A DNA stretch of 64,000 nt. It comes from a virus (lineage: Duplodnaviria; Caudoviricetes). Below the pieces are notes generated by a model. That model was not told the origin of the DNA. It saw only the letters and a list, made by a program, of their open reading frames with translations, and did no database searches. A program made the position numbers and the translations under genes. Numbering within the stretch: position 1 is the first letter of the stretch; every line of letters starts with the position of its first letter. The stretch lies in the IMG/VR virus record IMGVR_UViG_3300013426_000014, positions 96,001 through 160,000 of that record; one strand, written 5' to 3'. Shown here one piece after another: positions 57,718-64,000 of this stretch.

Positions 57718-58059
57718 ATGAAGAGACTGATTATTTTCATATTGTCCGCTGTGTTGCTCGCCGCGTGTGGGCCGGGGAACAAGGTGAACACCGGGACGGA
57801 TCCGGTGGCGTCGTCGATGCGGCTCGTTGAGTACAGGATGATCGGTCCATGACAGATCGACTCGATGATGACGGCGGAAAGACTGCCGGAAATCGAAAAA
57901 TGGACGCGGACCCTGCTCGTGTCGGATGAGACGAAAGATCCGGTGGAGCAGTGATTGACGACAATGAAGACAGACTCGACAAAGACCGACTTCACGCTGA
58001 CGCGTCTCGCCACGGCAGACACGTCGATGCTATACAGAAAGATAATATACAGATGGTAA
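57718..58059 (+). CDS. Lipoprotein, 113 aa with TGA=Trp (absent from track)
   Basis: MKRLIIFILSAVLLAA-C lipobox; two in-frame TGA; TAA overlaps the next ATG. Confidence 0.75.
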
Positions 58060-58694
58060 TGAATTACGGATGATCGCCGTCGCAGCTGGACGGCACCGAA
58101 CATATAGCGGCATATGACAACGCCGACATGCCGGATGCATTCTCGTTTAAGGACGCGATCCCGTCGGCGCTCAATCAGGGGTCGACATCGACATGCGTCC
58201 CGCACGCCTGCTCCGCGCTGTATGACTGGATGGAGTCGTTGAAGGCCGGATCACCGACGTCTTACGGGATGTCAATATACAACATATATGACAGGCGTCA
58301 AAACCGGCCGGAAGAGGGAATGAGTTTCAAGAACGCCCTTCACGACTTGCTGCATATCGGCGCGGTAAAGCCGGATGAGTACAAACGGCATGATTTCTCG
58401 AACGCGTGGAGGATCAAGGAGTACGCGATGGTCAGAAACATCATATCGCTCAAGAACTGTGTCATGATGAACGGCCCGGTCATGATAGCGACACTCGTCC
58501 GCGACCCGGATTCAACGAAATACTGGAACGGCGCCGGCAATTACGGCGGGCATGCTGTATGCTGTGTTGGATGAGACCGCAAGGGATTGATAATCAGAAA
58601 TTCATGAGGCAGGAATTGAGGAATCGGAGGATATACCCGTATGCCTTATGACGAGTTCGGCGCCGTGCTGGAGGCGTGAACCGCGATATTATAA
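58059..58694 (+). CDS. Papain-family (C1A) cysteine peptidase, 211 aa with TGA=Trp
   Basis: NQGSTSTC catalytic Cys, GGHAVCCVG-W-D, IRNS-W-GRN-W-GIGGY; five TGA (58071, 58572, 58605, 58617, 58677). Confidence 0.9.
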
Positions 58695-58959: not shown

Positions 58960-61900
58960 ATGTTCGACTATTCATCGATACGGCTTTTCGACAAGAAAGG
59001 CAAGGCGCTGCCGGCGGACTATGTAAAAACGCCGGACACGTTCTTTTATATAAAATCCGAAATAAATTCTGGTCATGACGCGCTGCTGTATCCGGTGACA
59101 GATATGGACGGCGGGTTGACGAAATTCGCCGGCATATGTGTCGACGACGGCGGTCTGCTGTTCACGGATAACACGGAACGGCGGGTCGACATCAGATCCG
59201 TCACGACAGACGATATCGTCTGCACAGCGACGCTCAAATCCGCCGACTATATTGAGCTGAACACCGCGGACGGCAAGGTATACGGGGTGAAGAACGTCAC
59301 GGCAGACGGTGTGCCGGCGATGTCTGGAACGGGCTATACAGTTCCGTTCCCTTCGGTAAAAATCCGGTCCCGTGTCAACTTCAGCCCTGTGTCGACTGGA
59401 CTTTTCGAGACGGAATGTGTGTACGCGCTTACCGAAACAGCCGGTAAATGAACGAAACAACGTGACGACCGGTGGAACCTGATGGGAGTGATAGATCCGG
59501 CCGACACAGAGTTCAGGTTCTTCTCCGTCGACACGACGACAGAGGAAATAAGTTACACGTCAAGCGTGACGCTCGACCTGTCTTCCGGCGGATACAGGTT
59601 CGATTTATGTTTCACCGCGGAAGATGAAGGTGTTTACGACGGGACGATGTATATATGCCTTGTCGACAAACAAAACGGCAACGAGCCGTATATGTTGGGG
59701 ACGGTCGCGCTGCACGGCGAGGCGGTCGGCGAGGATGAGCGTTTCAGGACGCTGCTGACAGATTTCGGTGTGCCGGATCCGAAAGAATACATCAGTACGT
59801 TGAAGGAGTCTTCCGTCGACGAGTCGAAACCGGATATGGCGCTGCTCAACAGGAAGAGCAAACAGCTGTTCCTGACATATCCCGACATATTCCCGTATGC
59901 CGGCACATATAAGGCGCTGGTGAACGCCGTGAAGTTTATGGGTTATGATGACATCACGTTCAAGGAGTGGTTCCGGACTATAGGGTCTGATGGCCCGTCG
60001 AAATATGTAACCTATGACATAACGTATGACGGAGGATCCGGAACCGTCCACTCGGCGGGAATCGAGGAACGGGCGGGCATGCGGAAGATGAACTGACTGT
60101 CGATGATGTACAGGCTCAACCGCGAGAAGGAGACGATGTCGGAAGACGGGACGCCCGATGTGTTCAATGTGTACGACTATGACGGGGACGAGCTTATGGT
60201 GAAGCTGCAGTCATTACGCAAGTGACTGGAAAAGAATATCATAGCACAGAACTGCCGGATAGTAGAGGTCGTCGGCGAGGGTGTGTACTTTGAACGTTAC
60301 CGATATGACATATATGGGACGGCGACGGAAAGCGAGACATATGACGCGGAGATGCGGCTGAGCCCGTATATCAAAGGCGGCACCGACACGCGCGTGCTGA
60401 AGGACGGGACGGCGCGGATAACGATCGGAGTAAGGGAGATCGACAGCGCGCTGACAGAACATGACATGTCGATGTCGGATCTGTCGGTCAGGAATGTCGG
60501 CGGATATGATCCGGAAGGGCTGTATATTGACAAGGAGTCGATGTCCGTCCGGAAAATGTCGGACGGGTATGACGCGGCGAAGGCGGATGATGGCTTGCAG
60601 ATCCCGCTCGACCGGACGTTCGGCCGTCCCGGCGGGATAAAATCGGTCGGCGTCAGGGCGAGCGTCTCATGCGCGGAGCATGTGTTCGCCCCGCCGTTCA
60701 CTGATCCGTCGAAAGGACGGATGCTGCTGAGGGACGGCGAGCTGACATTCGTGACGAGCGAGTGGGAAGGCAGGACCGATCCGATGGAGTGTGTATTCGC
60801 GGTGACGCCTGACATATACGTTGAATCCGCCGTCATCCGCGACCCGAACAAACCGTGACGCGAATCCGCGCTGTACACGGTGTCGGAGGGAGACGGAAAA
60901 TTCGTGATCGCGGACCAGTCCGGGAAAACCGTCGCCGAATCGACGGATTATGTAAAAATCAAGGACGGAAAACTCAGATACACGACGGCGAACAGGCACG
61001 GACTGCCGATGCTGATGTGCTCCGGCATGGCGCTGACAGCGGACGGGAAAGACACCGGCCTGATGAAAACGGGGTCGGAATACATAATCGACATCCGCGA
61101 CGGCAGGCTCGCATGAGAGAACACCGTGTCGGATCATCCGGAGTTCGTTTATCTCAACTTCAGTTATGACACGGCCGGCGGCGAACAGGATATAACGGCG
61201 AATTTTGTGTTCACCACAGACGGGATGATGACAGATGAGACTGTATACGACGGCGAATTCGTCAAAAGGTATCTCGCCGATCCCGACACGGCGTTCAATT
61301 ACAGGACCGATTTCTCCGTCGACGTGTACAAGGCCGGTGAATACGACGTTACTATGACGGGGCATGACGGATACGGCGGGACGTTCGCCGCGGCGGTATG
61401 TCCGAAACCCGCCGTCATATCGACGGATCCGCCAGAGGATTACGGGCCGGCGCCGAAATGGATCATACAGGGTATAAGTGCGGATCCGGACGCCGGCGTC
61501 ATCACATATGACGACATAAGCTACGCGGTCGATACGCCGAAACCCGGGCAGACATTGCTGCTGATGAACCTCGGCGACAGGTTCCGGCTGTCGGGCGCAG
61601 GCGGGTCATACACGGCTGAGCGGTGGGGATCCGCCGAATCGCAGGTGTTCGACATGAAAACGAAACGGGCGTATGACAACGCGGCGACAAGGAAATGATG
61701 CGCCGTTCGGGTTTCCGTCGTGTCACAGACGGACGGACGGCTAATATATGATCTGGACGGGTCGCTGTATGTCAATAACGGAAAGTATGATGTGAAGGTT
61801 GACGGCGTCGACGCCGGATTCGATAAGGCGGTGGCGGAATCGGCCGGCGTCTGGATAAGGGACAACGCCGTATATACGGGGACGGCGAAAGGATCGAGTA

Positions 61901-62241
61901 GCGGGATTGTACTTTCCCTTGATAAAATCGGGACGGCGTCATGGACGGACGGCAGCACCCCATATAAAAAAGGTCAGAACATCAGGATAAAGACGGATGA
62001 CGGGACCGCCGTATACAAGGTGACGGAGAATAAATCCGGAATCTTGACAGCGCGCGGCCGTGTGCCCCTTACCGTAAGTCAGAAAGCGGCGGTGACCTAC
62101 CAGTCCGTGGTCACGGAGATGATGACGGCCGGCGTCGATGCGGCAGAAGAGACATCTGACGGATACTGTGTCGTATTCACAGACGGATCACCGGCGGTCC
62201 CGTTTATCGATGACACATTCTCGATGATTGTTACGGATTAG
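58960..62241 (+). CDS. Baseplate wedge-like protein (gp7-like), 1093 aa with TGA=Trp
   Basis: Six track ORFs in one frame joined by TGA; IFPYAGTYKALVNAVKFMGY motif; TAG at 62239. Confidence 0.7.
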
Positions 62242-62252
62242 GATGATTTGGA

Positions 62253-62410
62253 TACGCCGACTTCTCGTCCTACACGTCGAACTCCGACTACTTCTACATC
62301 AACCTGTACGGTCCGGGGACGACATCTTCGACGTTAATCTCGGGAAACGTACAGATGAAGTGGACGAAGGTCGCACAGGCTGTACACAAACTGAAGGTCA
62401 TCCTGGACGG
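62253..62410 (+). repeat. Left copy of a perfect 158-bp inverted repeat
   Basis: Exact reverse complement of 63238-63395; encodes YADFSSYTSNSDYFYINLYGPGTTSSTLISGNVQMKWTKVAQAVHKLKVILDG. Confidence 0.95.
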
Positions 62411-62783
62411 CGCGTCGGGCACGCCGAGCGGCGGCAATCCGTATCTCTACGCAAACTATGATAATAATAGTAAACTGCGATATGGCATATGCGGTAACAA
62501 CATACAGCAATCCGGAACAACTGTATATTTTTACATAGATAACAGTACAGAACTGGATACATGACAAATATGCTTAAATGATATAAACGCCAAAGCGTCA
62601 ATGGAAATGGGAATAACTATATCAAATGACGCATCAGTGATATGGGACTCCGAATATATACACACTTCCGGAACGGACTACCAATCTGTCGGCAACATAA
62701 TACAAGATTTAATAAACACGTATAATGCAGCGAGCACATCAAATCCGAAGACGTTCACGTTGTCGACACAAGATTTTACTTAA
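62253..62783 (+). pseudogene. Silent alternative C-terminal cassette for the fibre gene on the opposite strand
   Basis: No N-terminal part or obvious promoter; repeat-encoded segment followed by a divergent domain (TGA at 62562) ending FTLSTQDFT*. Confidence 0.75.
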
Positions 62784-62812
62784 TATAATGGTATGTAACT
62801 GTATATTTACAA

Positions 62813-62838
62813 AAAAGTCCGGATTACTCCGGACTTTT
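62813..62838. terminator. Bidirectional terminator at the centre of the invertible segment
   Basis: AAAAGTCCGGA-TTAC-TCCGGACTTTT. Confidence 0.85.
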
Positions 62839-62861
62839 ATAAATAGTTGAATACCGTTACA

Positions 62862-64000
62862 TTAAGTAAAATCTTGTGTTGATAATGTAAATGTCGATTC
62901 GCCGCTATTATATGCTGTTATCAGGTTTTGTATTATTGTACCGACTGTCTGATAGTCGGTTCCTCCGGTAGTACTTGCGTAGGATGAATCCCATATTGTA
63001 ACACCATCTTCTGTTATAGTGAACCCGCATTGCATCGACAGCATATTATCATTATATGTCATCATCTGTTGTCACGCGCTCAGTTCTGTTGAATTATCTA
63101 CATAAAAATACGCGTTTAATGAATTGTCCAGATTAAGGCTATTGCCGCATACGCCACATGACGTTTCACTGCCGCCAGAATTATCAACGTACTTTAATTC
63201 CGGGGTTGCACCTGTTTGAAACCCGGTATAGATTGTCCCGTCCAGGATGACCTTCAGTTTGTGTACAGCCTGTGCGACCTTCGTCCACTTCATCTGTACG
63301 TTTCCCGAGATTAACGTCGAAGATGTCGTCCCCGGACCGTACAGGTTGATGTAGAAGTAGTCGGAGTTCGACGTGTAGGACGAGAAGTCGGCGTAAATGT
63401 ACAGGTATGAACTGCCCGTTCCCGATATTGTCTTCGAACCGGTCGACGCGCCTGACTTCGCGGCGGACGCTGACGTTGTCGACAACCCGTATTTTACCGA
63501 GGATGAAATACCGCTTGTTGCAACTTTTCATCCGGATCTGCTCGTATCCGTTATGCGCACCGTATACGCGAAATCGCCGGAAGACGTTTGATTCTGTGCG
63601 GAAGCGTTCCAAGAAGGTTTCGAAACCACATTGGACGTCCATGTCATTTTCGCGGTTTGTATCACATTCGTGGATGACGTGCCCGGCCCGTATAATTTAA
63701 TGTTGAACCAGTCAGAACCAGTTCTCGCGGAAAAGTCCGCGTATAGATAAACATAGTCATTCCCGGTTTTACTTACCGAAAAATCAGACGCGCTGCCTGT
63801 CGTCGCTTTCGATTTCGCGTCAGATGAACCTGTAGTGGATAATCCGTATTTGACATTGGAAGATGTGTATTCAAGACCCACTTTTCATCCAGTGTTGCTT
63901 GTGTCGGTTACATATAACAAATATGTGAACTCACCGGAAGTGGTCTTGCTTTGTTCGGATGCGTTCCAGTAAGGATAGAGCACGCCAGCGGTTCCGACCT
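62862..64000 (-). CDS. Fibre/adhesin with ~119-aa BACON-like tandem repeats and variable C-terminus (5'-partial), TGA=Trp
   Basis: Frame is open to the window end through TGA at 63885, 63528 and 63072; repeats WNAS...VTDTS..GWKV...KYGLSTT...YADFS; ends FTLSTQDFT*. Confidence 0.82.
63238..63395 (-). repeat. Right copy of the perfect 158-bp inverted repeat
   Basis: Exact reverse complement of 62253-62410, inside the expressed fibre gene. Confidence 0.95.

Follow-up and report, generated by a model that had tools for sequence, protein, structure and literature searches.

A TGA-recoded jumbo phage with a candidate invertible tip-swap cassette, apparently without a dedicated invertase, at the end of its giant fibre gene

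Can a virulent-type phage hold a second, exchangeable tip for its fibre without encoding an invertase to exchange it? The question is raised by a 64,000-nucleotide stretch of a Caudoviricetes genome (hereafter the window), which corresponds to positions 96001–160000 of the 269,322-base IMG/VR phage record IMGVR_UViG_3300013426_000014. Close to the right end of the window, the region around the 3′ end of a giant fibre gene with BACON domains carries two 158-nucleotide (nt) arms that are exact reverse complements of each other and that enclose two alternative fibre C-termini, tips A and B, lying head to head. We give roughly even odds (about 50%) to the reading that positions 62253–63395 are a real inherited tip-swap cassette, inverted most likely by general homologous recombination. 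The structure itself is certain; that it flips at the present day is a plausible reading of it and was not observed in the contigs.

The arms, located by a repeat search, are 100% complementary (158 of 158 positions) and separated by 827 nt, and self-BLAST of the whole contig identified them as its sole long inverted repeat. All translations given here use genetic code 4 (TGA read as Trp), on which the shared frame of the arms depends; under this code both arms encode, in one frame, the same 52 residues followed by two bases of a Gly codon. Tips A and B are convergent and intact, with 61% identity when the repeat is included and 48% in the variable part, and each contains a single in-frame TGA codon, which in both replaces TGG at a shared, conserved Trp. 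Their last 11 codons and 3′ untranslated regions form a second inverted pair (81% complementary), and a hairpin at about 62811–62840 (−30.3 kcal/mol, z = −7), bordered by a run of A and, opposite it, a run of T, is a likely bidirectional terminator shared by the two. The symmetry centre of the whole block (62824) falls in the loop of this hairpin, the block as a whole being an imperfect palindrome of 1,143 bp whose outer ends match perfectly. Apart from the two tip ends and the hairpin, the 827-nt core has no content, fibre-assembly (U/Tfa-type) genes included. The plus-strand copy has no N-terminal part: its frame overlaps the end of an unrelated gene of 1,093 amino acids (aa), with a stop at 62241, and the first in-frame start after the upstream stop is ATG 62355, inside the arm. 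The original prediction, made from the letters and a list of open reading frames (ORFs), had described exact arms read in one protein frame, two homologous but divergent head-to-head domains, a shared terminator and a plus-strand copy deprived of its N-terminal part, and all four descriptions agree with the results above. Coordinates are collected in Table 1.

Table 1. Features of the tip-swap cassette and its immediate surroundings, in window positions unless stated otherwise.
Feature	Position	Strand	Remarks
Upstream 1,093-aa structural-module gene	58960–62241	+	Code-4 ORF; six TGA read as Trp; TAG at 62239–62241; outer left boundary of the cassette, outside the switch
11-nt spacer, TAG stop to left arm	62242–62252		Found in the window's lineage only; absent from relatives, whose arm abuts the TAG in frame
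Left arm	62253–62410	+	Repeats the final 52.7 codons of the constant fibre part: second half of the last immunoglobulin-like shaft domain plus linker
Tip A, spare C-terminal domain	62411–62783	+	In frame with left arm; one TGA read as Trp; TAA at 62781–62783
AT-rich spacer with hairpin (about 62811–62840)	62784–62861		Likely bidirectional terminator; A- and T-run flanks
Tip B, currently expressed C-terminal domain of the fibre	62862–63237	−	Stop at 62862–62864
Right arm, part of the expressed fibre gene	63238–63395	−	Reverse complement of left arm
Constant fibre part	63396–64000 and beyond the window, to contig position 166748	−	2,628-aa gene, contig 158865–166748

Could the block be a product of assembly, with two tip variants, or the two orientations of a switch with short repeats, written into one contig? 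We regard this as extremely improbable: the block is genuine DNA. A 234-kb SPAdes contig (L008, ENA) is identical to the window through the block, and a 993-nt contig (L010, ENA) is likewise identical and crosses the left arm into tip A. De Bruijn contigs end k−1 bases into the arm (L009, with k=119 and 10 similar contigs, and the Logan contig L005, from a strain 97.5% identical to that of the window), and since contigs built with k-mers shorter than the arm stop in this way, the block behaves as a true repeat. In relatives with flanks about 87% identical the layout is the same, the fibre gene being convergent with a short arm-plus-cassette that begins immediately past the 1,093-aa ORF. Their arm pairs are imperfect (117/120 in L006, 109/120 in L020 and L021, 104/120 in L004), the left-side copy differing by 2–13% from the right arm; such diverged copies are not one sequence written twice and cannot be made by an assembler. 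Within the window, moreover, the left arm is linked to the unrelated 1,093-aa gene by 11 nt, a unique junction that lies in the middle of the 269-kb contig and not at a contig end. The recurrence of the structure in other assemblies and samples, together with the imperfect arms of the relatives, contradicts the scenario that the original prediction had named as its own possible refutation, namely a left copy that is a chimera of two strain variants.

The arms have also evolved in concert. Those of the window are 100% identical to each other but share only 65–72% identity with any arm from the other lineage, whose arms are 85–100% identical among themselves. The left arm therefore resembles the fast-evolving distal fibre and not its conserved neighbour, the 1,093-aa gene (84% protein and about 87% DNA identity in relatives), and it follows that the arms exchanged sequence, or that the whole block was imported after an exchange in a donor. 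Recombination or gene conversion between the arms is thus well supported by sequence comparison. Homology-dependent exchange would keep 158 nt identical, whereas crossover at a fixed site would not. In the relatives the longest perfect runs between arms span 42–64 nt, for which much less exchange would be predicted, fitting the drift and decay described below.

Candidate machinery for such exchange is encoded by the phage itself, which has a RecA/UvsX-family protein (60.9 bits, above cut-off), a UvsW-like superfamily 2 helicase (ResIII plus Helicase_C), an Mre11/gp47-like phosphoesterase (Metallophos) and a DnaB-like helicase; genes resembling the UvsW and gp47 invoked in the original prediction are therefore present. 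A six-frame search of the 269-kb contig for Resolvase (PF00239), Phage_integrase (PF00589), IS110/Piv, Recombinase (PF07508), rve, Y1_Tnp and TnpB, with control genomes positive, returned none of these seven families, which extends to the whole contig the earlier remark that the window lacks an invertase. Recombination in T4 requires roughly 50 bp of homology, above which it increases with length, so two perfect 158-bp inverted copies should cross over measurably.

A different enzymology would have a serine or tyrosine invertase, supplied by the host or by an unassembled part of the phage, act at a short core site within the arms. The well-studied fibre switches of Mu, P1, e14 and p15B all use an invertase, P1 combines its crossover sites with long (0.6 kb) surrounding repeats, and Bacteroidota, the probable hosts here, carry many orphan invertases. 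Inversions that alter tail-fibre genes are, in addition, enriched near recombinases (PMC9881135). The contig is rated 87% complete and the recombinase search covers the contig, not the hosts, which favours this alternative and counts against a flip independent of any invertase; yet two assemblies end at 269,286 and 269,322 bases, and little may be missing. We nevertheless hold an invertase to be unlikely, given the seven families without a match and given that fixed-site crossover alone would neither keep 158 nt identical nor yield concerted arms. Conservation within the arms lies mainly in stretches of shaft-domain motif (for example LYGPG), and inspection by eye across the lineages showed no conserved core of dyad symmetry, no pattern search for 26-bp gix/cix/hix-type sites having been run. 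A partial resemblance of the arm to a Bacteroides invertase site, noticed by eye, was dropped because it is not conserved in relatives.

Under inversion by homologous recombination, tip A would be held inverted, without a promoter-proximal part, behind a 158-bp copy of the shaft–tip junction. Reciprocal exchange anywhere within the identical arms would invert the 827-bp core, placing tip A in frame on 2,451 constant residues and moving tip B to the silent position. This exchange would most likely proceed through the phage's own UvsX-type machinery, with no dedicated invertase. The palindrome probably originated by fold-back duplication at the terminator hairpin, an origin suggested by its being centred on the terminator loop. 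By analogy with short homologies in T4, occasional flips would be expected, at about 1e-4 to 1e-2 per generation, and no 50:50 equilibrium. Whether a virulent T4-like jumbo phage runs a reversible host-range switch in this way, by its own general recombination at a useful rate and with tips of a new fold, is a more demanding claim, which we consider possible but doubtful.

Structure prediction indicates what would be exchanged. The fibre gene encodes 2,628 aa under code 4, with 21 TGA against 31 TGG codons. Pfam detects BACON (PF13004; 47.7 bits, cut-off 25) in two stretches of the protein, and likewise in the fibre homologue of L004. The in-frame fusion of the other tip upon flipping, anticipated by the original prediction, stands; its description of a BACON-repeat shaft has to be narrowed to these two stretches, the remainder consisting of other immunoglobulin (Ig)-like repeats. 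In a model of the last 232 fibre residues (predicted local distance difference test, pLDDT, 82.5), an Ig-like sandwich (residues 1–99) is followed by an alpha/beta tip, and the repeat corresponds to model residues 56–108, predicted to be the latter half of the last shaft domain plus linker. Fold searches with this two-domain model gave generic Ig-like matches within residues 1–99 (VIA Z at most 6.4), and no significant match came from BFVD. Modelling of the expressed tip alone (window 62865–63263, minus strand), a check that had been proposed for both tips with the original prediction, drew on only six sequences and gave a confident alpha/beta fold (pLDDT 87, predicted template modelling score 0.84). 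Searches of solved structures with this fold found no counterpart (best VIA Z 3.9; Foldseek E > 0.1). Neither tip has a family in Pfam or PHROGs.

Both tips have a GC (guanine plus cytosine) content of about 40%, compared with 50% for the genome and 53–57% for the adjacent arm and gene. Foreign origin was rejected as an explanation of this low value, because the tips of relatives also lie 8–10 points below their flanks; it reads instead as a compositional trait of the domain. No match was obtained in a homologue search with tip B, in related-locus searches of IMG/VR and JGI metagenomes with the tip and the C-terminus of the 1,093-aa protein as queries, in a scan of IMG/VR for the exact pattern of an arm segment, in exact look-ups of two arm-plus-tip ORFs, or in a tblastn search of GenBank phages with the fibre C-terminus. 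A representative match, P0007 (1,514 aa, 13 stretches), was set aside as noise due to repeats or low complexity (Calx-beta).

Has the cassette ever flipped? In a maximum-likelihood tree of the variable tips, the silent tip A of the window clusters with the tips that L004, L006 and L020 express, and the expressed tip B groups with the silent tip of L004 (support 84.7/77). Consistently, tip A scores 82–97 bits in tblastn to expressed tips against 60 bits to the silent tip of L004. The tree and the tblastn scores fit at least one past flip; in the approximately unbiased test, a tree in which tips follow position has p = 0.056 and a tree in which they group within genomes has p = 0.23. A further contig (L011; ENA ERZ808284 NODE_25809, 827 nt) equals window 62411–63237 exactly, and this orphan SPAdes contig, with a coverage of 13 and present in two samples, may reflect an unresolved or mixed orientation of the core, with paired reads perhaps backing both. 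A homologue search with a 137-aa ORF spanning fibre flank, arm and tip found no recombinant junction and is uninformative, since database gene calls start inside the arm. Inversion at the present day, like its frequency, is inferred.

Several observations weigh against a switch in regular use. No flipped contig was found: four contigs above 200 kb and the 993-nt contig of the strain are all in the orientation of the window. The ratio of nonsynonymous to synonymous substitution rates (dN/dS) is 0.66 for the silent module and 0.70 for the expressed tip, compared with 0.16 for the neighbouring gene, although these values rest on few changes (16 differences in the silent module). Among relatives, two independent 1-nt frameshifts interrupt the spare module (one in L006 and L016, the other in L020 and L021), a frameshift lies inside the arm in L012 and L013, which share the same unrelated downstream genes, and in L015 and L022–L025 the spare cassette is cut short, with unrelated genes behind it. 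The arms of the relatives have drifted to 87–98% identity. From these frameshifts, truncations and drift, the spare copy looks to be under weak selection in many genomes, and flipping cannot be frequent in the family as a whole; such decay speaks against a switch that is both rapid and well maintained family-wide. Finally, the tips are putative receptor-binding domains, judging from their position and from the gradient of identity along the fibre (about 90% to L004 at the N-terminus, 30–60% in the last 600 residues), but the tip fold matches nothing solved.

In the other lineage, L004 has an intact tip like those of the window as its spare cassette; several relatives have instead a different module, about 118 aa long and similar to an internal domain of the fibre (L017:677-991, L006:8096-8452, L020:3630-3983), whose frame continues that of the arm in L017–L019. 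The best-preserved spare cassette is that of the window's strain. After the truncated cassette, at the expected 3′ end of the fibre gene, two unrelated minus-strand genes are found (L022:3890-5013; also L012, L013, L016, L024 and L025), encoding 194 aa, with a weak CBM_5_12 match, and 178 aa; the contigs end soon after. The spare arm of the relatives lies in frame after the TAG of the 1,093-aa gene (L004:10214-10222, L006:7983-7994, L012–L025). Read-through of this TAG would append half a shaft domain and a tip to the 1,093-aa protein, a frame that is broken in the window by the 11-nt insert (within 62239–62255).

These patterns bring forward a static alternative, in which the block is a frozen relic of an old fold-back duplication or of a former switch, its spare tip unused and its perfect arms the outcome of one recent conversion or block import; the cassette would then matter on evolutionary time only, as raw material for rare tip replacement. 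The single orientation of all resolved contigs of the strain, the frameshifted or truncated cassettes and drifting arms of many relatives, and a silent-module dN/dS that fits relaxed constraint are all as a relic would have them, and the distal 600 aa, arms and tips together form one divergent block beside a conserved neighbour, as the import of a module gives. A relic is, however, hard to reconcile with a tip A that has stayed intact over 124 variable codons despite its 48% identity to tip B, or with arms that show no difference in 158 nt when the flanks of the two lineages differ by about 13%. From what is known of T4, moreover, a static state in the presence of a UvsX-type recombinase and perfect 158-bp arms would need active suppression. 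On balance we judge the relic somewhat unlikely, if by no means negligible.

The plus-strand copy might also not be silent, in which case no inversion would be needed: it could give a separate product, either through a 142-aa ORF from ATG 62355 or, in relatives, through TAG read-through. This ATG is conserved, L004 has the same 142-aa ORF, and the arm of the other lineage directly follows, in frame, the TAG of the 1,093-aa gene; no terminator separates that gene from tip A, so tip A is probably transcribed. The conserved ATG needs no further reason, however, being a conserved Met of the shaft domain, and a start there would fall inside a predicted beta-sandwich. In the window, the 11-nt insert puts the copy out of frame with the 1,093-aa gene, ARAGORN found no TAG-suppressor tRNA among 33 tRNAs, and the frameshifts and truncations of relatives show the copy to be dispensable. 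A separate product is accordingly very unlikely.

For the preferred reading, a tip-swap cassette inverted by homologous recombination, the balance is as follows. The anatomy of a switch, the absence of a recognisable invertase from the contig, the presence of homologous recombination genes and recombination between the arms, all part of or implied by the original interpretation, have held up; every contig of the strain in one orientation and the decayed cassettes of relatives have not gone its way. The family as a whole displays what could be called the life cycle of such a cassette, intact in the window and frameshifted or truncated in relatives.

The cassette belongs to a TGA-recoded, virulent-type, T4-like jumbo phage. 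The late genes consistently use TGA for Trp, and every gene delimited ends in TAA or TAG; ARAGORN, at default settings, detected tRNA-Trp(CCA) and no tRNA-Trp(UCA). The 1,093-aa protein at the left boundary is PHROG 28177 (unknown function) and is about 30% identical to proteins of Prevotella Lak megaphages and Flavobacteriia jumbo phages; the cluster of this neighbouring gene has 186 members. The similarity to those phages, together with the gut-metagenome origin of the related contigs, makes a gut Bacteroidota species the probable host. A 309-aa ORF (57765–58694, plus strand) that lies just before the 1,093-aa gene, inside the tail/baseplate module, shows peptidase-like Cys/His motifs by eye.

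If the cassette does flip by homologous recombination, strictly lytic gut jumbo phages could hedge their host range without a special enzyme, and a simple fold-back duplication at a terminator could be enough for phase variation to evolve in any phage that has UvsX-type recombination. Such switches would be missed by searches for recombinase genes, and hidden by short-read assemblies, which break at the repeat or choose one orientation.

To our knowledge, the well-studied tail-fibre inversion switches are all found in temperate phages and all have a dedicated invertase. The present cassette shares with Mu G/Gin, P1 C/Cin, e14 P/Pin and p15B Min a constant N-terminal part outside the segment, alternative C-termini in opposite orientations inside it, inverted repeats at the junction of constant and variable parts, and expression of only the copy joined to the constant part; with P1 it also shares long repeats. 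By contrast, there is no serine invertase beside the segment or elsewhere in the 269-kb contig, the segment consists of two 124-codon tips only, with no fibre-assembly or chaperone genes, and the phage is virulent-type and T4-like, with an inversion that is predicted from sequence. The lack of a PF00589 match in the contig likewise separates it from tyrosine-recombinase invertons and shufflons.

Gene-altering programmed inversions have been surveyed (PMC9881135). With hsdS invertons, PilV/Rci and SusC/SusD the cassette has in common an intragenic inverted repeat that would swap a specificity domain with a silent partial copy. Those systems are cellular, usually with a tyrosine recombinase nearby, unlike this phage genome, in which no recombinase of the families searched was found.

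Mechanistically, the closest comparison is with homology-driven inverted-repeat flip-flop, as in isomerisation of the plastid inverted repeat and of the L and S segments of herpesviruses. In cyanophages, 30-kb segment isomers flip without a dedicated recombinase (bioRxiv 10.64898/2026.02.14.705889). The window shares with these three systems long (near-)perfect inverted repeats that are kept identical, no dedicated recombinase and active general recombination. It differs in that its arms measure 158 bp rather than 400–700 bp or several kb, and in that its repeat is intragenic: a flip would alter a protein, whereas theirs move large segments and leave coding unchanged. In pneumococcus, some hsdS inversions persist without their dedicated recombinase PsrA, and deletion of recA had no detectable effect (PMC4948785). 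A flip without a dedicated recombinase, as proposed here for the fibre tip, already has precedents in the cyanophage isomers and the pneumococcal hsdS inversions.

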